A DNA stretch of 64,000 nucleotides from Longimicrobiales bacterium. GTDB lineage: Bacteria > Gemmatimonadota > Gemmatimonadetes > Longimicrobiales > Gaopeijiaceae. The stretch is from positions 384,001 to 448,000 of the forward strand of contig CBDAON010000004.1 of assembly GCA_965198065.1 (NCBI GenBank). Direction: 5' to 3'. This document shows positions 306-11,854 of the stretch, one piece after another; the stretch's first letter is position 1, and each line of letters starts with the position of its first letter. The position numbers and the translations under genes are program-made. The notes beneath the pieces were generated by a model that saw nothing but the letters and a program-made list of their open reading frames with translations, did not search any database and was not told where the DNA came from.

Positions 306-1697
306 TCAGGCCAGGAGTGAAGGCGCAGACGATGTTGCTTTCTCGGGAGGGGATTCCTCCGGTTCATCACGCGGAAATCTGGGAGCCTTCGGCACATACG
401 GCACCAGACCCTCCATTGCTTGACGATAGAAGCGTTCCACACCGTCCGTAATGGACGTGAGTACACGGGCACCGGCCCGTCGTCCACGCCCGGTAGCGGC
501 CCGTCGTCCACGCCCGGTAGCCAGCCCCATTGTCCAACTGAGCACGAAGAAACGAGGTTCTGCGTCTGTAGAGATCGCCGCGCGATCAGGGCCCGTCATG
601 ATCGGCATGGGTCCGTCTTGAAGGGCGTCGATCGGGGCTTCAGTGTATAGCCCTCGCCTGTTCCACTCTACGTGCACCTGCAATCCCTTGGGAAGGTCGT
701 CAATGGGAAGCTTCCGCAGCAACCAATTGAGCCGTGTCTTTGTTCTTCCTTCACTCGGCGCCGGGAACCTGACCGAATACCGCACGACTTTACCCTGAAG
801 CATCAGCTCCAGACGTATATCACCAATCGCATCTCGCACTTTCAATGCGCCTGTCAAAATGCCACTGTCAAGGGCCTCCGCACACATCTGTTTCGTGCGT
901 CTGCCAGGGTCCTTCACATCTGCCCGAGACGTACGGCGCTGCACGTCTGCTCCCATTTTGGCGCGCAGCCGGAAAGCCAGCTTCTTGAGAAATGCATCCC
1001 AATGTTCGGTAACGTCGGTCAGTTGATTAGGTACCGTAGAAAGTTTGTGTTCTCTCGCAGCCTGAAGCACGATACCCCAGTGAGCACCGAGCGACGGGGG
1101 GGCGATGATGCGCGACTCGTCGTCGGTGATATACTTGATCCACTCATCAAGCATCCAGTGTTGATCCGAATCTTTGATCTCCTTCTTGGTACTGAGCACT
1201 TGTGCTTCCGCGAGAAGACGCTCCCACGATAGGTGGACGACCGGCACCTTACGCAGACGTCTCCCATCTAACTCCACTGGAGGTCGTCCGTTGGGCAGGG
1301 AGGCCTGGTTGCTGATTGTCACGAGGGCATCAAAACCTCCCTCGCCCGCCAACTTGTGGTAGGTATCGACCTGTCCAGCGTCGAGGAGATTGTCACCCAC
1401 CTTGACCTCGACGGGCGCCGACCACTGGGTCTTTCCGCGGATGACACGGATTATGCCATCTGGTCGAACGATCCTGGTCGGAGAAGTCCCCATCTCGAAG
1501 CTCGCTTCGGTGTAGCACGAGATGCGCCCCGCAGGCCCGCCCGCAGCACGAACCACGATCCGCCCAAACTCGGACACCGCCCGTACCATAGCTAATAGGG
1601 ATGCTGCGGCGCGCAGCTCGGCCTCCCGTGTGCTGGAGATGTGTGCAGACGGAAACAGACGGACTTCGTGTCCCTCAAGTCTGTCGCTGTGTACCAT
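306..1697 (-). CDS. Conserved hypothetical protein with PD-(D/E)XK nuclease-like N-terminal domain
   Basis: Long ORF with RPDGII...VEVKVG motif and LVTISN; GGAG SD before ATG 1697. Confidence 0.65.
   Translation of the reverse strand: MVHSDRLEGHEVRLFPSAHISSTREAELRAAASLLAMVRAVSEFGRIVVRAAGGPAGRISCYTEASFEMGTSPTRIVRPDGIIRVIRGKTQWSAPVEVKVGDNLLDAGQVDTYHKLAGEGGFDALVTISNQASLPNGRPPVELDGRRLRKVPVVHLSWERLLAEAQVLSTKKEIKDSDQHWMLDEWIKYITDDESRIIAPPSLGAHWGIVLQAAREHKLSTVPNQLTDVTEHWDAFLKKLAFRLRAKMGADVQRRTSRADVKDPGRRTKQMCAEALDSGILTGALKVRDAIGDIRLELMLQGKVVRYSVRFPAPSEGRTKTRLNWLLRKLPIDDLPKGLQVHVEWNRRGLYTEAPIDALQDGPMPIMTGPDRAAISTDAEPRFFVLSWTMGLATGRGRRAATGRGRRAGARVLTSITDGVERFYRQAMEGLVPYVPKAPRFPRDEPEESPPEKATSSAPSLLA
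473..520. repeat. Exact 24-bp tandem duplication (ATGRGRRA x2) inside CDS
   Basis: cggcccgtcgtccacgcccggtag at 473-496 and 497-520. Confidence 0.95.
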
Positions 1698-1859
1698 GGT
1701 GTCGTCTCCCACCGTTGATCGTTGGGTTTGCCCGACAGCTGCTTCGAGGATTTGAGATGTGGTGGGACTTCTTTGATTCCTCTGAGTGGTGCTGCCTACC
1801 GGGACCAGCTACCCCCCCTAATATCGCCACTGTTGGTGAACCTGTTGGGACGCTGAAGC

Positions 1860-1898
1860 CTTAGGAGATATACTGACATCTTATCTCATCTGAACCCC
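1860..1898 (-). mobile_element. Probable end of an inserted element, Tn3-like terminal inverted repeat shape
   Basis: Minus strand GGGGTTCAGATGAGATAAGATGTCAGTATATCTCCTAAG (39 nt, GGGG...CTAAG); abrupt GC drop; truncates adjacent gene; partner end not in window. Confidence 0.45.
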
Positions 1899-2397
1899 AG
1901 TGCGCGGCTACGACCGCCTCGTACGCGGACCAGCGCAAGCGCTGTGGCGCGGTCGAGTCCCCCATTCCGATCAACGGCATCTTCGCCCATGTCCTGCAGT
2001 CCCCGCACTGCCTGCCGGCGCACGCCGTAGGCTCGCACTGCGGCGGCACCGTCCAGTCGTCCGGCCACAGGAACACTTGGCGGTAGCGCGTGGCGACTAC
2101 GTCTGCAACCCTCGCGGACGTCGAGCGCGGTGTCATCGGCGCGTCCGTTCGGTATTCGCGCACCCGTAGACTGACTTCCCCCGTTTCCGGGTCTATCCCG
2201 TCGACGATCCCTTTCGCGTACACGCCGTTCTCGAAGCGGTGGGGGCCGTGGAAGTACACCCAGCATTCCCAACCCTTCTCCACAACGTCGATGTAGTGGC
2301 GCCACCCGAGCCGCAATCGGCGACCCTGCATCCGTTCCGGGAGCACGGCTGGCCGGAAGCCGTCGTAGCCGCTGTGTATCTTGTAGAGAAACCTCAC
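1899..2397 (-). pseudogene. 3'-truncated protein: PUA/EVE-like N-terminal domain plus Cys4 cluster
   Basis: GTG overlaps HAD stop (GTGA); GW..Y...VEKGWECWVYF...GVYAKGIV pattern; CEPTAC-CGDC; coding character ends at AAHW where the element end begins. Confidence 0.6.
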
Positions 2398-2987
2398 AGG
2401 TCAAGCAGTTCGTCGAAGCGCGCGAGCACCTTGTCCGCGCGGTAGGGCTCCTCCGTCTCGTACCCGAACGACGCCCAGGCGAACCGCACTGAGGCCGCCT
2501 CCGCAGCCTCAGCGTCCGTGGCTCCGTCCCCCACGAACCAGATCCCCGCGTCCGCTTCCCGCCCAATCTCGGCCAGAACCCAGCGTATCCCGTGCGGCCT
2601 CGGTTTCGCTGGTATTTCCGCCCGGGGTGTCGCGATGGCGGCGGAGTACTTGCCGACGCCGGTCGACTGCAGCAGGGGCTGGACAAGCCAGTCCGGCAGG
2701 TTCGTCACGATACCGATCGGCGTTCCTCTTCCCCGAAGCCGGTCCAGCGTCGGGACGACCCGGTCGTACAGCTCGACCGCACCGCCGTCCTCCCTCGCCG
2801 CCCGGGCCAGCCGCGCGTTGCTCACGCCGCGATCCCTCGCTGCCCGTACGACGCTTACGCCAGCTTCGAGTTCCCGCTCGACCTGCAGCGCCGAAACGCC
2901 GGACAGCCGTGCGATGGTCCCCGCGTACCACGGGCGGCTGTCCCAAACCGTCCCGTCTAGATCCAGGACGACAACTGTTGCAGCCAC
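2394..2987 (-). CDS. HAD-family hydrolase/phosphatase
   Basis: Motif I VLDLDGT, motif II IVTN, motif III AKPRP, motif IV FVGDGATD; GTG 2987 overlaps dprA end. Confidence 0.9.
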   Translation of the reverse strand: MAATVVVLDLDGTVWDSRPWYAGTIARLSGVSALQVERELEAGVSVVRAARDRGVSNARLARAAREDGGAVELYDRVVPTLDRLRGRGTPIGIVTNLPDWLVQPLLQSTGVGKYSAAIATPRAEIPAKPRPHGIRWVLAEIGREADAGIWFVGDGATDAEAAEAASVRFAWASFGYETEEPYRADKVLARFDELLDL

Positions 2988-4066
2988 GCTTCTTGTTCTT
3001 GCGGATTGTCCGTCAGTTCGAAGGCGAAACCGCCCGTGCGATCGTCTTCCTCGATGAGTGCGTTGCCGCTCGTCTCCTTGGACCCATCCGTCCTGAATGT
3101 GGCGACCAGCTTCTTCTGCTCCCGTCCGAAGCGGTAGGCGTTCATCGCTCCCCCGGTCAGCGACGACTGGGCAACCAGGACGCCCTGGGCGAACGCCACG
3201 ATCAGCTTGTTCCTCTTTCTGAGCAGCAGCGACGACGCCCGCTGTCCGAAGCCGAATTCGCTGACGAACGCCGCTCCTGGGTGCGCGAGCAGCTCTTGCC
3301 ACAACTCGCGGTTCTCCGGTGGAAACACCTTGTCGAGTCCACAGGGCATAACGCACACCGTGCGGCCCCCAGCCTCCACGGCTGCGCTGTGCCCCATCGA
3401 GTCGGCGCCCATTGCGAACCCCGACACGACCACCATTCGATTGCGCGCCGCCACCGTCGCGAACCGCTGAGCGGCGCTCGCGTAGGGTTCGTGCGTCTTC
3501 CGCGAGCCCACGATGGCCACCGTCCCCGCCGCGTCCCAGACCGCCGGATCCCCGCGCACGTAGAGCACGGGTACCGGATTGTTGCTCGCGTACACACGCG
3601 CCGGGTACCCCGGGTCGCCATGGACGAGGATGGTCGCCGAGAGTTCGGCTGCACGTTCGAGTTGGTCGATTGCCCTCCCCCGCCCCGCGGCCACGTCCGC
3701 CTCCGAAAGGGCGGCAATACCGCCTCGCAGCTTTTCGCCCGTGCGCCCCCTGAACGGCAGGAGATCGGGGTTCCTGATCGCCGCCTGTGCGTCGACGCCG
3801 GCGTCGTACATGGCACGGAACTTCACAGGACCGAACCCGGGGACCCGCTCCAGCGCGAAAATGGCGCCGAGACGGTCGGCGCCAGGGCCGCGCCCGCTTC
3901 GATACGGTGCGTCCCCTACGATGTCCCGGCCCCTCAGCAACCGTTCCTCCAGCAACAACCTGACGGCTTCAGACCTCGATGGCGCTGGGGTACGAGTGGT
4001 CCGCCAACCGTCCAGCGCTTTGATGGTCGCCTCGTCCAGCCGTGACTCGATACGTTGCGTCGTCAT
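2957..4066 (-). CDS. dprA: DprA/Smf-family protein with N-terminal ribbon-helix-helix-like domain
   Basis: VAIVGSRK, VVVSGFAMGADSMGH, RNKLIVAFAQGVLVAQSSLTGGA; N-term IESRLDEATIKALDGW...SRSEAVRLLLEE; GAGAGAGGA SD. Confidence 0.9.
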   Translation of the reverse strand: MTTQRIESRLDEATIKALDGWRTTRTPAPSRSEAVRLLLEERLLRGRDIVGDAPYRSGRGPGADRLGAIFALERVPGFGPVKFRAMYDAGVDAQAAIRNPDLLPFRGRTGEKLRGGIAALSEADVAAGRGRAIDQLERAAELSATILVHGDPGYPARVYASNNPVPVLYVRGDPAVWDAAGTVAIVGSRKTHEPYASAAQRFATVAARNRMVVVSGFAMGADSMGHSAAVEAGGRTVCVMPCGLDKVFPPENRELWQELLAHPGAAFVSEFGFGQRASSLLLRKRNKLIVAFAQGVLVAQSSLTGGAMNAYRFGREQKKLVATFRTDGSKETSGNALIEEDDRTGGFAFELTDNPQEQEAWLQQLSSWI

Positions 4067-4174
4067 TCCTCTCTCACTACCAGCACCGCCGCCAGGCGGT
4101 CGTCTTCCTGCCAACCGGCGCTCCCGTCGCGTTTTCGTCAATGGGACGCGACCAACGGGCCGTTCCGTACGTCC

Positions 4175-5197
4175 TCAACTCCCCGTTCCCTGCGTGTGGC
4201 GGCTGGACTGGAGCGAACTCTCCGCCAGCGCAAGCACCAGCAGCACGACGCGCTGGCAACCGGACTCGCGAAGCCGCAGAGCACACACGCCCGTAGTGTG
4301 ACCGCGGTTCATCACGTCGTCGAGCAGTAGGACCGTTCGTCCCCGCACCTCATCCGCCTTCCGGTCGGCGAACGAGTACTGGCGGGCCAGCTCTGTTTTG
4401 CCGACGAATCTCGACCGCGCCGAGCTGTCCGCTCGTTCGAGGAAGTCCGTGCGCAGCGGGATCCTGAGCCTCGAACTCAGGTGTTCTCCGGTCTTGGCCA
4501 GGATGTCCAAGCCTCTCTCTGCCCTCCGGCTCTCCGCCGCGGGCACTGGTACGATGTAATCCACTTCACGGATCCACGCTCGGCACATCGGGCTGGCTCG
4601 CACATGCTCTGCCAGAACGCGCCCGAAAAAACCCGGTAGCACAGGATTGCCCTGTTTGAATTCCCGGATTAGTAGCGACCATTGCTCGTTGCGGTTCTTG
4701 TCGCCGGCCCAGCGGTAGACGCCGATGGCCGACACCTCGTCGATTCCCACTACGGTCGGGCTGCGTATCGCTTGGTTCAATCCGAATTGCTTCAGGAACC
4801 TGCCGCGCAACTCGACCTCCGAGGGCGGCCTCTCGAACTGTTCTGCGATCGCCGCGTCGAACTTCCTGACTTCCGCGCTCGCACCTTTCTGGATGACGGT
4901 CAGCTGCTGCTGGATCAGCCACCTGAGTCGCCGGGGCACGCCGGGAAACCGCAGAGCAGTTTGGAGATCCCCGACGGTCCGCGATTCGTCCAGATCGCTT
5001 TGGTGCGCCAGCGCGCGCCGATAGAACGCGTATGCTAGGTCGTCAGCGTGCTTCGCCTGCTGCTTCGGCGACGAGCCCGACCGATCAAACCTCTCGGCGG
5101 CATCCGAGTGATGCCCCTCTCTCGCCAACCGGGCAGCGTCGTCCAGCTGCTTGCGCTGGAATTTAGCCTTCAGACTGGATAGGTCCGCGGACATCAT
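4175..5197 (-). CDS. ComF-like phosphoribosyltransferase with helical TPR-like N-terminus
   Basis: IVPVP and PRPP loop LLLDDVMNRGHT; lacks the ComF double zinc ribbon. Confidence 0.85.
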   Translation of the reverse strand: MMSADLSSLKAKFQRKQLDDAARLAREGHHSDAAERFDRSGSSPKQQAKHADDLAYAFYRRALAHQSDLDESRTVGDLQTALRFPGVPRRLRWLIQQQLTVIQKGASAEVRKFDAAIAEQFERPPSEVELRGRFLKQFGLNQAIRSPTVVGIDEVSAIGVYRWAGDKNRNEQWSLLIREFKQGNPVLPGFFGRVLAEHVRASPMCRAWIREVDYIVPVPAAESRRAERGLDILAKTGEHLSSRLRIPLRTDFLERADSSARSRFVGKTELARQYSFADRKADEVRGRTVLLLDDVMNRGHTTGVCALRLRESGCQRVVLLVLALAESSLQSSRHTQGTGS

Positions 5198-6374: not shown

Positions 6375-6866
6375 ATGATCCGAAACTACACCGATGAGGA
6401 GCTCATGAGGCTCCGTAAGCTTCCCAAGAAGGTACGAAACCCGGGAGCCCACTGGTCTGAGAAACCGACAGAACATCCGGCCCACAGACAACGTACTTTA
6501 AAGGCGACAGGAACCAGTACGGATGGCCGAGAACACCGTTTCCTGATCTATCAACGTAAGAACCTTCGTGACGAGCCCAGTTACTCGTGCGGGATCGTCT
6601 ACCTGCCACCAAGTGGGCCGAGGCTCACGCTGGCTCGGTACAATGGGCCGAGTCACCGGCACGGGGGCATCCGTTACAAAACTCACATTCATCGGGCCAC
6701 GGAGACCGCCATGGCTGCTGGGGCGCGACCAGAGCAGCCAGCCGAGGAAACCACGCGCTACAGTACCCTCGAGGGTGCCTTTGCATGTCTTATCGAAGAC
6801 TTTAACCTGTCTGGAGTACACGCCGAACCTGATCATCCGAGTCTGTTTCATGGCCATCAAACCTGA
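6375..6866 (+). CDS. Hypothetical protein with RYNG-x2-H-x-H...HIH motif (DUF6978/TumE-like), partner of DUF1828 gene
   Basis: LARYNGPSHRH...KTHIHRATE; overlaps next gene by 17 nt. Confidence 0.7.
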   Translation: MIRNYTDEELMRLRKLPKKVRNPGAHWSEKPTEHPAHRQRTLKATGTSTDGREHRFLIYQRKNLRDEPSYSCGIVYLPPSGPRLTLARYNGPSHRHGGIRYKTHIHRATETAMAAGARPEQPAEETTRYSTLEGAFACLIEDFNLSGVHAEPDHPSLFHGHQT

Positions 6867-7629
6867 CGACCTTGAGCGGCGACTGTGCGAACAGCTCTGC
6901 GCCGCCGTTCGTGTGGAGCAACGTCCCGACGGCGAGTTCATGCTCGCGGCTGAATTCGAATTCCCCGATGGGGACAAATACCCAATCCACCTATCGGAAG
7001 CCCCCGGCGGCGTCCGGTTATCAGACAAGGGCGACACGTTGATGCGGATAAGCTACGACCATGACATCGACGCTTTCATTACCGGAAGTCGCGGGCTACT
7101 GATCGAGCGCATCTTGAGCGAGGAACGAGTCGACCAGGACCGAGGCGTGTTCTACCTAGATACGCCTACCGACCGTCTTTCCGATGCCCTCTTTCGTTAT
7201 GGTCGCGCCCTCACCCGAATCTATGACCTCACACTCCATTCACGGTCACGGGACGCCTCCACCTTCTACGAGGACCTCGCGGACCTTATCCTCCATACGG
7301 CTGACGAAGAACAGATCCAGCGCGACCACCTTCTGCCCGACATTCCCAACTCCGAGGCCTATCCGATCGACTATCGATTGCCAGGGAAGCGTGGTGGGCA
7401 GGTTTTCTTGTATGGCGTTCCGAATCGGGACAAGGCCCGTCTGACCACCATTATCCTGTCCCACTTTCACCGAATTCACTTGGACTTCGAGTCGATTCTA
7501 GTTTTCGACGATCAGGCTGAGATCCCTCGGATGGACTTGGCCAGGCTCTCGGATGTGGGAGGAGAAATGGTTTCGTCGCTCACGTCGAGTGACGATCTGC
7601 GCCGAAAGATGGAGCGCCGGCTCGCCTAG
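6850..7629 (+). CDS. DUF1828/DUF1829-type protein
   Basis: FEFPDGDKYPIHL...VRLSDKGDTLMRISY signature; C-terminal YPIDY... REase-like segment. Confidence 0.8.
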   Translation: MAIKPDDLERRLCEQLCAAVRVEQRPDGEFMLAAEFEFPDGDKYPIHLSEAPGGVRLSDKGDTLMRISYDHDIDAFITGSRGLLIERILSEERVDQDRGVFYLDTPTDRLSDALFRYGRALTRIYDLTLHSRSRDASTFYEDLADLILHTADEEQIQRDHLLPDIPNSEAYPIDYRLPGKRGGQVFLYGVPNRDKARLTTIILSHFHRIHLDFESILVFDDQAEIPRMDLARLSDVGGEMVSSLTSSDDLRRKMERRLA

Positions 7630-7991: not shown

Positions 7992-8935
7992 ATGAAGGAG
8001 TGGCAGCAGGCCGCACGCATCACAGGCGCGCCTTGGTTCCTTCTCGTGCTCGCCGTATCCGGGTGTCTCCCGACACAGGACTCGCCCGAGGCGCAGTACA
8101 ACCTCGGTGTCATGTACGCCAGCGGCGAGGGGGTCCCTCAGGATGACGCCGAAGCCGTGCGCTGGTACCGCATGGCTGCCGAGCAGGGTCACGCCGAGGC
8201 GCAGAACAATCTTGGCGTCATGTACGACAACGGCCGGGGGGTCACTCAGGACGACGCTGAAGCCGTACGTTGGTATCGGATAGCCGCCGAGCAGGGTGAA
8301 CCCCGTGCCCAGTTCAACCTCGCGGGCATGTACGACAACGGCCGGGGGGTCACTCAGGACGACGCTGAAGCCGTACGTTGGTATCGGATAGCCGCCGAGC
8401 AGGGTGAACCCCGTGCCCAGTTCAACCTCGCGGGCATGTACGACAACGGCCGGGGGGTCACTCAGGACGACGCTGAAGCCGTACGTTGGTATCGGATAGC
8501 CGCCGAGCAGGGTGAACCCCGTGCCCAGTTCAACCTCGCGGGCATGTACGACAACGGCCGGGGGGTCACTCAGGACGACGCTGAAGCCGTACGTTGGTAT
8601 CGGATAGCCGCCGAGCAGGGCGAGGCCCGTGCACAGTACTATCTCGGGTGGATGTACGTCGGCGGCGACCCTTGGGACCAGCTCTGGCTGGGCGGCCAAG
8701 CTTCCGTTGAGCTGGCCCCGACGGTCCCGACGGACACGGTGTTGGCGCATATGTGGTTCAACATGGCCGGAGCAAACGGAGACGCACGGGCCCGAAGCGA
8801 AAGGGAGCGCCTAGAGCGATACATGACGCAGGAGGACATAGGCGCGCTACCGACTTCGCGCGCCGGTGTATTGAGTCGAGCTACCGGGAATGTGGCCCAG
8901 GGCAGCACCCGGATTCGCCGCCCTCGTCCCGATAA
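7992..8935 (+). CDS. Sel1-repeat lipoprotein (apparent 1-nt deletion near 8841)
   Basis: Lipobox LAVSGC; repeated AQxNLGxMYxxGxGVxQDxAEAVRWYRxAAEQG; typical C-terminus RATDFARRCIESSYRECG lies in the alternative frame ending at 8935. Confidence 0.9.
8219..8620. repeat. About 3.7 identical 108-bp tandem units (one Sel1 repeat each)
   Basis: tgtacgacaacggccgggggg recurs at 8221, 8329, 8437, 8545. Confidence 0.95.
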
Positions 8936-9411
8936 GGCTAGCCTTGCCACCCGGGCAGAACCAGATACTTCGCGTACCCTTCGAGGCCTCCTCCGGCGAG
9001 GAGGCCGTCATCGGCTTGCCACAGCATGTTCACCTCAGCGGAGACTATTCGAGCCAGACAACGGATGAGCCTAGGAAATCGGTGGTGCCATGGCGATCAC
9101 CGATACAATCGGGACGCGCTGACACGGGACCCGATGCGACCCGGATTCCCGCCATTCGATGCCGTTTTCTCGCTGTTTCGGTACGCTGCAATCAGCCATC
9201 GGCCAACGGCAAGTGCGGCAGATCGTGCAGTCCCGGTTGAACTTAGACGATTACTTGCCGTAAACGCACAACTTGAATCCGATACCGTCCAAGGATTTCC
9301 GGGTAGGTGCATAACATCCAGTATTTACAACAGGTTACGTAGTTTCTTTCTTGTCTCGTTCTGCCAGCAGTGCCCTTTGCGATCCCGTTCCATCCCAGTT
9401 ATGATTGTGGG

Positions 9412-10590
9412 ATGGATAATGTGATTCGATCTCCCGTCAAGCGCCGCCTAGGCAAGCCCAAGGGCCGCCATCCCCACAAGCGGCTCTCGACCGCCTTCGT
9501 GCGCTCGGCACCGCCCGGCAGGCACTGCGATGGCAACGGTCTCTACCTTTACGTCCAGAAGACCGGAACCCGGAGTTGGATTCAGCGGCTCGTGATCCGG
9601 GGCCGCAAGCGCGAGCTCGGACTCGGCAACGCCCAACTGGTCTTGCTCGCCGAGGCGCGGGAGCAGGCGCTGGCCAACCGCAAGCTTGCCCGCGCGGGCG
9701 GCGATCCGCTGGCCGAGAAGCGGCGTTCGGCGGGCATTCCCACCTTCGCCGAGGCCGCTAAGCGCGTCATCGAGCAGAAGAGCGCCGGATGGCGCAACGC
9801 GGCGGTGCCGAGGAACTGGTATCGCAGCTTCGAGATTCACGTCTTCCCAAGGATCGGGAGGGTGCCGGTCTCCGAGATGACGAGCGCCGACGTGCTCGAG
9901 ATCCTCACACCCATCTGGCACGCGAACCCGCCGACGGCCCGGATCGTTCGCCACCGCATCCGCGCCGTGCTGGAATGGGCCATCGCCATGGACTGGAGAA
10001 CGGACAACCCGTGCGACCGGCTCCTGCCGGTGCTCGGCTCCCAGCAACATGTCGTCAGACACCGGAAGGCCCTGCCTCACCGCGAGGTGGGGGCGGCCAT
10101 CGAGAAGGTCCGGGCGGCGAAGGCGGGCAAGGTGGACGCGCTGGCGTTCGAGTTCATGGTGCTCACGGCGGCGCGGGGCGTCGAGGTCCGCGGGGCGGTA
10201 TGGAGCGAGATCGACCGGGAGGAGCGCGTCTGGACGGTCCCCGCGAGCCGGATGAAGAGCCTGCGCGCGCACCGTGTGCCGCTGTGCGGCCGCGCGCTGG
10301 AGATTCTCGACGCGGCGCGGAAGCTGGGCGGCGGCGGGAGTCCGATCGTGTTCGTCGGCAAGCGCGGCAGAGAGGTGGGCGGCGAGCAGATGGGCCGGCT
10401 GCTCAGGAAGCACGGGATCGCGGCGGTGCCGCATGGGTTCAGGTCGTCGTTCAGAGACTGGGCCGCCGAAGAGACGGACCACCCCCGCGAAGTCGTCGAG
10501 GCGGCCCTGGCCCATGTAGTCCGGAACCCGGTCGAGGCCGCCTACATGCGCTCCGACCTGTTCGAGCGCCGCCGTCGGCTCATGGACGTG
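9412..10590 (+). pseudogene. P4-like tyrosine integrase with Arm-binding domain, lacking its last residues and stop
   Basis: DGNGLYLYV...SWIQR...ELGLG; catalytic TAARGVE, HGFRSSFRDW, LAH, AYMRSDLFERRRRLMD; then reads into antisense of the next gene. Confidence 0.9.
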
Positions 10591-11422: not shown

Positions 11423-11770
11423 GTGGAGCCCTCTCGACTGGACGGGTAATCCCTCTCGGTCCAATCCGCGGGGAGGACGGCGGGTCTCTGGGAAGACAGG
11501 ATGCATCAGGGTCACGATCCGTACAAGCTTGAAGCACGCCATCTCGGCGGCGGCTAGGAAACTGAGGGAGTGCGTCGTTAGGGGACGTCCTCCCACGCTT
11601 ACGCCCGATGTGGTAGCGAGTGAGGTTGGACGGAGGCACTTAAAGGGTGCCGCAGCCGCGAACCCGCCTTGTTAAGCGAAGACGACTTCCGCTCGATCAC
11701 GACTTCTGGTTGGATCGTAAGCGTTGGGTAATCCATTGATCCCGGCGGATGCCGAGTGTGGTTGTTGAAG

Positions 11771-11854
11771 TGCCGGGGCTGGGATTCGAACCCAGAAGGG
11801 GTTGCCCCCGGGGGATTTTAAGTCCCCTGCGGTTGCCGATTTCGCCACCCCGGC
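11771..11854 (-). tRNA. tRNA-Leu (anticodon TAA), CCA not encoded
   Basis: GCCGGGG/CCCCGGC acceptor stem; GGGGA-CTTAAAA-TCCCC anticodon arm; long variable arm; GGTTCGAATCC T loop; discriminator A. Confidence 0.97.

Follow-up and report, generated by a model that had tools for sequence, protein, structure and literature searches.

The module analyzed here occupies positions 1899 to 5197 of the window, by which we mean the whole stretch of 64,000 nucleotides (contig CBDAON010000004.1, positions 384,001 to 448,000, of a Longimicrobiales bacterium). Open reading frame calls and their translations confirm four co-oriented genes, all on the minus strand, with the following features:

4175-5197, minus strand: gene 1, 340 amino acids; TPR-like helical domain and ComF-like PRTase with an intact LLDDV motif
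2957-4066, minus strand: gene 2, 369 amino acids; DprA/Smf family with an RHH-like N-terminus
3935..4066, minus strand: RHH-like segment of gene 2, a predicted autoregulator
2394-2987, minus strand: gene 3, 197 amino acids; HAD phosphatase with motifs I-IV intact
1861-2397, minus strand: open reading frame of gene 4, 178 amino acids; truncated
1897..2397, minus strand: the 167 surviving codons of gene 4; predicted EVE/PUA-fold reader (residues 1-117) and Cys4 finger
1861..1896, minus strand: DNA past the break in gene 4; unrelated sequence that adds an 11-residue tail and a stop

Genes 1 and 2 are separated by 108 bp, and the last three genes do overlap as the initial annotation had it, gene 2 with gene 3 by 31 bp and gene 3 with gene 4 by 4 bp. 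The absence of competence neighbors that it noted also holds, as none were recognized among the flanking open reading frames scanned. This copy of the module sits between two identical integrase elements. No RNA data set containing it was listed, which carries no information on its expression.

The fourth gene had been taken for a small “Cys4 protein”. It is in fact a broken reader-Zn-PRTase, so that the module has two PRTases. Gene 4 represents the first 167 codons of a protein of about 351 amino acids, cut at position 1897. Over these 167 residues it is 93% identical to the 351-residue protein P0005, and the C-terminal half of such relatives is a PRTase, which led us to reject the idea of a stand-alone Cys4 sensor. 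DNA similarity to the closest relatives ends at 1897, the GC content falls to 0.52 over positions 1713-1896, beyond the break, and the missing PRTase half was not found elsewhere in the genome (assembly 87.6% complete). An assembly error is unlikely, since the break is bridged by one short-read contig with 1 difference over positions 1000-2011, though the run may be the source sample. Neither a repeat nor an IS element was seen to mark the break, where only matches of 9-11 bp turned up, which is chance level. The window's copy of the module is thus without its core PRTase domain and without the PRPP-binding DD motif that 108 of 110 relatives keep, and at most the branch represented by gene 1 could still work here.

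Intact relatives of gene 4 unite the predicted EVE/PUA-fold reader, the Cys4 finger and the ComF-like PRTase in one protein, and of 61 long matches to the reader domain among 110 clusters, 57 have it joined to a PRTase. The structure discussed here was predicted for the intact family (pLDDT 88.8), and in this model residues 121-337 match ComF with Z 14.8 and ShosT with Z 8.7; a Foldseek search with the model matched only the PRTase part. For the reader (residues 1-117), the best structural match is 2ar1 (Z 9.4, rmsd 3.1, 107 amino acids), a score little above the 7-8 typical of models without a clear match. Comparison with the THYN1-5mC DNA complex 5j3e gave Z 8.7, with 1wmm Z 7.9 and with VcaM4I Z 6.7, and chains of the PUA superfamily align to residues 1-117 in at least 13 of the 50 matches listed. 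We take 2ar1, THYN1, 1wmm and 2gbs to be EVE proteins. YTH (Z 7.8) and ASCH (Z 7.4) folds score nearly as high for this domain, so that more than one kind of ligand may be considered.

Attempts at proof of EVE on the sequence level failed: none of 39 family members matched the Pfam EVE profile (PF01878), an hhalign alignment of the reader to EVE had a probability of 4%, and a sequence search of solved structures with the reader found no match. An Atlas lead for the reader scored 0.93, in a cluster that is 52% EVE. The domain has five conserved aromatic residues (F14, W32, Y35, F49 and Y60), candidate pocket residues, and among diverse representatives W32 is invariant (54 of 54), while Y35 (49 of 54) and Y60 (51 of 55) are mostly retained. 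At the level of the fold, judged on a predicted model with a best Z of 9.4, the earlier guess of a PUA/EVE-like domain stands, and we predict that the N-terminal domain of gene 4 is an EVE/PUA-fold reader of modified bases.

Gene 1 carries the second PRTase, and it is a looser partner of the other genes. Its PRTase matches the ComF profile TIGR00201 with E 9e-10 and Pfam PF00156 with E 1.6e-5, just under the cut-off, and the DD motif is kept in 70 of 74 relatives. The model (pLDDT 93.5) matches ComF 7p0h with Z 13.8 (rmsd 4.1 over 178 amino acids) and ShosT 8zvb with Z 10.4. Its N-terminus, approximately residues 1-105, is all-helical. That this part is TPR-like, as first proposed, agrees with a moderate match at the fold level (Z up to 8.9, where helical domains need about 13 with this tool), but not with Pfam, which finds no TPR in gene 1; profile matches to TPR proteins are weak (best E 0.0013). 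Gene 1 occurs at 24 of 32 loci in four arrangements, is missing at the other 8 and shows little co-variation with the core genes, so that we no longer regard it as a fixed member of the operon. The two PRTases share 27% identity over 140 amino acids, and neither this value nor a FastTree phylogeny supports recent duplication.

The product of gene 3 is a HAD phosphatase as annotated, with all four motifs present; motifs I, II, III and IV are kept in 49, 48, 46 and 48 of 49 relatives, respectively. The initial annotation saw a toxin split into separate HAD and PRTase genes. The HAD gene is indeed separate in the window and at 40 core loci, but its likely partner is gene 4 and not gene 1. This assignment, which we consider the most likely one, follows from the loci that lack gene 1 and from its weak co-variation with the core, and from a natural HAD-reader-Zn-PRTase fusion (P0299), whose HAD domain shares 32% identity with gene 3. 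Known from one protein without gene context, this is the one HAD-PRTase fusion among 110 clusters, and it has the HAD and PRTase domains in the order found in ShosT. A split PRTase/DprA/HAD layout without a reader also occurs on a Rhizobium plasmid (locus L159), so that this layout taken by itself is not unique.

Gene 2 is a DprA-type protein, as expected (Pfam PF02481, E 5e-43). PADLOC profiles for ShosA (E 2e-45) and, weakly, PsyrA (E 4e-28) also match, and the protein stays under the cut-off of the dprA equivalog TIGR00732 (131.6 bits versus 191), which the separate housekeeping dprA elsewhere in the genome exceeds with 228 bits; a comF-like match is likewise found elsewhere in the genome. 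All 31 rows of module DprA form a clade of their own with support 100/100. The claim of a non-housekeeping DprA thus holds insofar as gene 2 is not the housekeeping copy of this genome, but the topology test does not reject a tree in which module DprA and housekeeping DprA are joined (p-AU 0.675). With ShosA, represented by two rows only, as the partner, the log-likelihood is lower by 22.5 units (p-AU 0.079). Among PDB structures, competence DprA scores 65 bits and ShosA 39 bits. These scores favor competence DprA, and neither they nor the tree tests support the descent from ShosTA that the first reading implied.

The competence-like features would also fit a cassette for DNA handling or salvage that derives from competence genes and has no role in defense. 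In it, ComF-like and DprA proteins would act on single-stranded DNA that enters the cell or is damaged, and modified bases would be recycled by reader, PRTase and HAD. ComF is the nearest fold for both PRTases, in gene 4 with the Zn finger region as well, and the DprA scores and tree just described point the same way. However, the host has its own dprA and comF-like loci, no uptake gene was found among 181 neighbors scanned, and the patchy distribution, the frequently broken genes and the nearby restriction genes reported below do not suit a salvage pathway, which we therefore consider distinctly unlikely.

With a threshold of E<=1, RHH_1 matches the N-terminus of gene 2 in 11 of 15 members of the family, the best with E 1.3e-4 and the window's protein with E 0.059; the RHH-like N-terminus is confined to the closest relatives and was not seen in distant members. 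In this clade it probably represses the operon. RHH autoregulators are typical of toxin-antitoxin operons, which favors the idea that the module is a selfish addiction device that stabilizes genomic islands, with the PRTases as toxins, DprA as unstable antitoxin, reader and TPR-like domain as regulatory parts, and no link to phages. The two identical integrase elements around the window's copy agree with this idea, as does precedent from toxin-antitoxin systems described in PMC11961720 and PMC4670107. Yet addiction needs neither the reader, which is present in every intact member, nor a second, sensor-like PRTase, and among 72,556 plasmids there was no match to the family of gene 4, making this explanation very unlikely in our view.

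The core order DprA-HAD-gene 4 is kept in 40 of the 42 dereplicated loci with enough flank, and such an arrangement is far from chance. The co-occurrence of the four genes elsewhere, on which the initial annotation depended, is thus widespread, with gene 1 as the looser partner at its 24 of 32 loci. Mantel tests show co-variation among the three core genes (r 0.55-0.62, 27 loci). Going by tree labels, the core is found in at least six phyla (Pseudomonadota, Acidobacteriota, Actinomycetota, Gemmatimonadota, Latescibacterota and Myxococcota), yet none of 60 relatives of the host carries gene 4, from which we conclude that the module is patchy and mobile. Gene 4 is in pieces at 6 of 50 loci, some of which may be sequencing errors. 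Viral contigs gave one weak PRTase match only, a contrast to ShosTA, which rides in prophages, and a point against the reading favored below.

The proposed defense neighborhood is supported by restriction-type genes, which lie no more than three called genes away at 16 of 38 loci but do so at just 2 of 20 control sites (Fisher p 0.016), a comparison in which the control sites come from one genome, related loci are non-independent and the categories were assigned after the matches had been seen; 22 of 38 loci are without such a neighbor. Frequent restriction genes are also what one would expect if the module restricted foreign DNA directly and without suicide, the reader carrying the PRTase onto modified foreign DNA to damage or tag it, and DprA capturing single strands and protecting the chromosome. 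EVE domains are described as aiming nucleases at modified DNA (PMC7897488), ComFC as binding single-stranded DNA and ComF proteins as interacting with DprA (PMC9005727). For RqlH, the DNA itself has been suggested as the target (PMC4670107), and the PRTase-containing Ophion is reported to block phage without abortive infection (10.1101/2025.09.30.679545). Against this explanation, neighbor clustering shows neither nuclease nor helicase in the conserved module, the portions of the literature examined show no PRTase to modify DNA, and ShosT and RqlH poison the host cell. Direct restriction is, we think, unlikely.

We favor the reading that the module is a mobile, ShosTA-like anti-phage toxin-antitoxin system whose PRTase toxin is switched on or aimed by a modified-base reader, and put its probability at roughly one half. 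Gene content, core order, intact catalytic motifs, the folds of the models and the break in gene 4 are what the sequence analysis itself establishes; the mechanism that follows is inferred. By analogy with ShosT and RqlH, the toxin would be the reader-Zn-PRTase of gene 4, binding PRPP through its DD motif and disturbing nucleotide pools or DNA. The HAD phosphatase may drive the PRTase reaction by removing pyrophosphate or another phosphate product, as the hydrolase domain of ShosT does. DprA, if it behaves like ShosA, would bind single-stranded DNA and recruit RecA, so that the uninfected cell tolerates the PRTase, with the RHH segment of the gene 2 clade as probable repressor of the operon. 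The fold of the reader suggests that it might bind a methylated or hydroxymethylated base, be it part of phage DNA or a nucleotide released from degraded methylated host DNA, and that binding would tip the balance to growth arrest. Least certain of all, the TPR-like PRTase may be a second, exchangeable sensor-effector that shares DprA and HAD. More tentatively, one can imagine modification-dependent immunity with a PRTase output, in which an EVE-fold reader fires a ComF-derived toxin on modified phage DNA or nucleotide, a swappable TPR-PRTase senses a phage protein, both sensor-toxins share one DprA and one HAD, and the whole arose from competence genes by a route separate from that of ShosTA; this is possible, but we would not bet on it.

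In the sources consulted, PRTase effectors recur in phage defense (ShosTA, PsyrTA, type III retrons and Ophion) with their substrate unresolved, and the trigger of ShosTA is described as indirect, through antitoxin loss or single-stranded DNA. With a PRTase hard-wired to a modified-base reader, knowing what the reader binds could reveal the trigger and perhaps also the class of substrate. If the favored reading is true, modification-dependent defense would extend past nucleases and dNTP-depleting phosphatases, and the competence proteins ComF and DprA would have been rebuilt into a separate defense lineage. Intact copies exist in environmental bacteria.

Pairs of PRTase and DprA are established toxins and antitoxins and anti-phage systems (PMC11961720, PMC12961424, PMC4670107, PMC9122126). 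In ShosTA, ShosT is a toxin made of a hydrolase/PPase and a PRTase, and ShosA is a DprA-like antitoxin (PMC11961720, PMC12961424); a further DprA and PRTase system is found in PMC9122126. The module has the same three activities (DprA, HAD-type hydrolase and DD-motif PRTase), a DprA-like gene adjoining a PRTase gene, PADLOC matches to ShosA (see above) and ShosT (E 2e-7), and models of genes 4 and 1 that match ShosT, albeit behind ComF. It differs in that HAD and PRTase are separate genes and not one protein, that a three-gene core, with gene 1 as frequent fourth gene, replaces two genes, that the core PRTase bears the predicted EVE/PUA reader and Cys4 finger, that a second, TPR-like PRTase is usually present, and that the DprA forms a separate clade. 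In PRTase trees, neither PRTase family joins ShosT with support. PsyrTA / RqlHI, a RecQ helicase-PRTase with a DprA-like antitoxin (PMC4670107), shares the pairing of ComF-like PRTase and DprA-like protein, and PADLOC gives a weak PsyrT match (E 9e-8); the module, however, is without a helicase, has two PRTases of about 340-350 amino acids with reader or TPR-like domains, and has an extra HAD gene.

Competence ComFC and DprA (PMC9005727) resemble the module in that ComF is the best structural match of both PRTases and that the Cys4 finger precedes the PRTase in gene 4 too. Reader and TPR-like domains, the HAD partner, the patchy distribution in islands, the lack of uptake genes nearby and the separate dprA and comF-like loci of the host set the module apart. 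We found no description of a reader-PRTase fusion in the literature searched, with an earlier computational mention possible in a 2015 survey of SLOG/DprA conflict systems, and the main text of the EVE context survey (PMC7641849) does not mention phosphoribosyl, PRTase, DprA, ComF, HAD or Smf. EVE-fused restriction enzymes (VcaM4I and EVE-McrB; PMC7897488, PMC7641849) carry an N-terminal EVE/PUA-like fold on the effector, as gene 4 does, whereas the module has no nuclease and the fused enzyme is a PRTase. In PUA-Calcineurin-CE-HAD, a PUA reader with a separate HAD is reported to trigger abortive infection (10.64898/2026.01.15.699771), and the main text of this preprint does not mention PRTase, phosphoribosyl, DprA or ComF. 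Both systems place a PUA-like reader on a nucleotide-acting effector and encode the HAD as a gene of its own; the effector of the module is a PRTase, and DprA is added to it.

The operon consists of four co-oriented genes, the last three overlapping as the initial annotation had it: genes 2 and 3 share 31 bp and genes 3 and 4 share 4 bp, with a gap of 108 bp between genes 1 and 2. The PRTase, DprA and HAD identities proposed for genes 1 to 3 are borne out by family profile searches:

4175-5197, minus strand: gene 1, ComF-like PRTase
2957-4066, minus strand: gene 2, DprA
2394-2987, minus strand: gene 3, HAD phosphatase
1861-2397, minus strand: gene 4, broken, itself without a family match in the profile collections searched

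Gene 4 had been read as a Cys4 protein, but turned out to be a broken piece of a protein of about 350 aa with a PRTase. Among the matches listed (the best 120 of 200 proteins), relatives are mostly of that length; the top match shares 93% identity with the first 167 residues of the window's copy, beyond which it runs on into the PRTase. DNA similarity to the closest loci stops at 1897, past which GC drops to 0.52. One short-read contig reads through the break and shows 1 difference; another run has a contig that matches 1897-2132 and then has different letters, as expected of an intact relative. The missing half was not found in the window's own assembly (87.6% complete), and this copy of the module is without the core PRTase domain. 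Directly after the break, an ORF at 306-1712 (minus strand; 468 aa, GC 0.59) has no match in Pfam, PADLOC or NCBIfam; its N-terminus carries, by eye, what we take to be a candidate PD-(D/E)XK-like nuclease motif.

A model of the intact gene 4 family (pLDDT 88.8) was compared with 48,161 solved chains. In this predicted structure, residues 121-337 resemble H. pylori ComF (Z 14.8, rmsd 3.2, 178 aa) and, more weakly, ShosT (Z 8.7). Residues 1-117, the putative reader, match PUA-superfamily chains: 2ar1 (Z 9.4), THYN1 with 5mC DNA (8.7), 1wmm (7.9), 2gbs (7.8), YTH (7.8), ASCH (7.4), DrmA (7.4) and VcaM4I (6.7), of which 2ar1, THYN1, 1wmm and 2gbs are EVE proteins. Sequence methods did not confirm EVE: Pfam EVE matched none of 39 family members, hhalign of the reader against EVE gave 4%, no solved structure matched the reader in sequence, and Atlas gave a lead only. 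Because of the structure matches, the reader is nevertheless called PUA/EVE-like at the level of its predicted fold. Its profile finds 110 clusters among 1.84 billion representatives, and 57 of the 61 matches of at least 300 aa have a PRTase attached, the other four being weak, unrelated or repeats. W32 is conserved in 54/54 diverse representatives and Y35 in 49/54. The Cys4 finger is present in 108 of 110 close relatives and absent from a deep reader-PRTase branch (L079:1012-3481; proteins P0284, P0289 and P0293-P0306). In one protein of 806 aa, P0299, HAD, reader, Cys4 finger and PRTase are fused; its C-terminal tail resembles, by eye, a gyrase B fragment and may stem from an insertion into gyrB.

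In three scans 100 loci were collected, 59 of them with the reader domain and 50 of these left after dereplication at 90%. Where 1.8 kb or more of upstream sequence is available, DprA and HAD lie directly upstream of gene 4, in the window's order, at 40 of 42 loci. Of the two that differ, L077 is a contig-end fragment and L079, on the deep branch, has a divergent TPR-PRTase and HAD, the HAD coming after the TPR-like PRTase on the other strand. The proposed co-occurrence of four genes thus stands for the core trio but less so for gene 1, whose type is present in 24 of 32 loci with enough flank on both sides, in four arrangements (window-like 12, downstream convergent 6, downstream co-oriented 4, upstream divergent 2), and absent from 8. 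The three core genes co-vary in their distances between loci (Mantel r 0.55-0.62, 27 loci), gene 1 with the core less so (0.13-0.19, 27 loci). Module hosts span at least six phyla, and gene 4 is carried by none of 60 relatives of the window's host; the RHH-like segment of gene 2 is confined to the closest clade. The gene 1 model (pLDDT 93.5) combines a helical N-terminus with a PRTase, the latter predicted to resemble ComF (Z 13.8) and ShosT (Z 10.4). Its N-terminus reaches Z 8.9 against TPR proteins, below the level asked of helical domains, with weak profile matches to TPR proteins.

All 31 module DprAs fall into one clade (support 100/100), to which none of the 16 housekeeping or 10 other mobile DprAs belongs. 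Elsewhere in its genome the host has a dprA of its own and a comF-like locus. The suggestion that gene 2 is a ShosA-type antitoxin finds backing in the PADLOC ShosA model (E 2e-45), but in the PDB competence DprA scores best, and in a topology test (24 rows) grouping with housekeeping DprA had p-AU 0.675 and with two ShosA rows 0.079. FastTree gave no supported grouping of either PRTase family with ShosT. On a Rhizobium plasmid (L159:2161-4329, CP007070.1), separate PRTase, DprA and HAD genes, all annotated hypothetical, stand beside a dGTPase with no reader; this is a split, ShosTA-like set, and therefore a split layout by itself does not make the module new. Bare DprA and PRTase pairs with no HAD occur in phages Mana, Riah and Bosnia and a Streptomyces plasmid (L155, L157, L158, L160), their DprAs apart from both ShosA and module DprA.

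Neighbours were taken from heuristic gene calls, up to three genes each side (181 proteins at 38 loci by Pfam, 142 also by PADLOC). No DNA-uptake gene was among them, in keeping with the lack of competence neighbours noted initially. Restriction-type genes flank 16 of 38 loci (L003, 006, 007, 008, 012, 014, 015, 020, 022, 043, 053, 058, 065, 067, 069, 070) against 2 of 20 evenly spaced control sites (109 proteins) of the window's own genome (Fisher p 0.016). This is supportive only, because all controls come from a single genome, kinship among loci makes them non-independent, and genes were put into categories once the scan was done. At L052:6117-7106 (minus strand), a gene divergent from the module dprA weakly matches Pfam 'wHTH-PRTase associated' (E 2e-5). 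In the window, a low-GC gene pair at 6375-7629 (plus strand), whose second gene has DUF1828 and a weak PADLOC PDC-M24B match (E 2e-9), is a possible second defence unit. An integrase pair flanks the module, with two further features nearby:

9118-10586 and G000:C4:380559-382027 (same assembly): tyrosine-integrase elements, 1469 bp, 100% identical, inverted
7992-9068, plus strand: Sel1-repeat protein, near the integrase element
11770-11854, minus strand: tRNA-Leu(TAA), near the integrase element

The integrase pair could invert or mobilise the stretch of about 11 kb between them; many further copies of the element (65-99%) exist in the genome.

Precedents suggest how the module might work. In ShosTA, as described in parts of PMC11961720 and PMC12961424, the PRTase is the toxin, helped by a hydrolase that removes pyrophosphate and neutralised by the DprA-like protein via ssDNA and RecA. 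Passages of PMC4670107 have the PRTase of RqlH required for toxicity, and in those of 10.64898/2026.01.15.699771 abortive infection follows when a PUA reader, accompanied by a HAD encoded separately, senses m6-dAMP. By analogy, gene 4 with HAD would act as toxin and DprA as antitoxin; the reader would do the triggering or targeting, and gene 1 would be a second sensor-effector that is exchangeable. We put this whole reading at about one in two; an anti-phage role of some form is rather more probable.

In the literature searched in full text, mostly main texts of open-access papers, neither a PUA/EVE-PRTase fusion nor the module's gene set is described, and no paper joins EVE, PRTase and anti-phage; the architecture, not recognised in the initial annotation, thus appears new within that literature. 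The main text of an EVE context survey (PMC7641849), as far as it was covered, mentions neither PRTase nor DprA. Other PRTase systems appear in passages of 10.1101/2025.09.30.679545, PMC13092281, PMC9122126, PMC5512222 and PMC9005727. The module is real and widely conserved. It is not a member of ShosTA in the strict sense but a variant of the DprA-PRTase kind of defence that is apparently undescribed.
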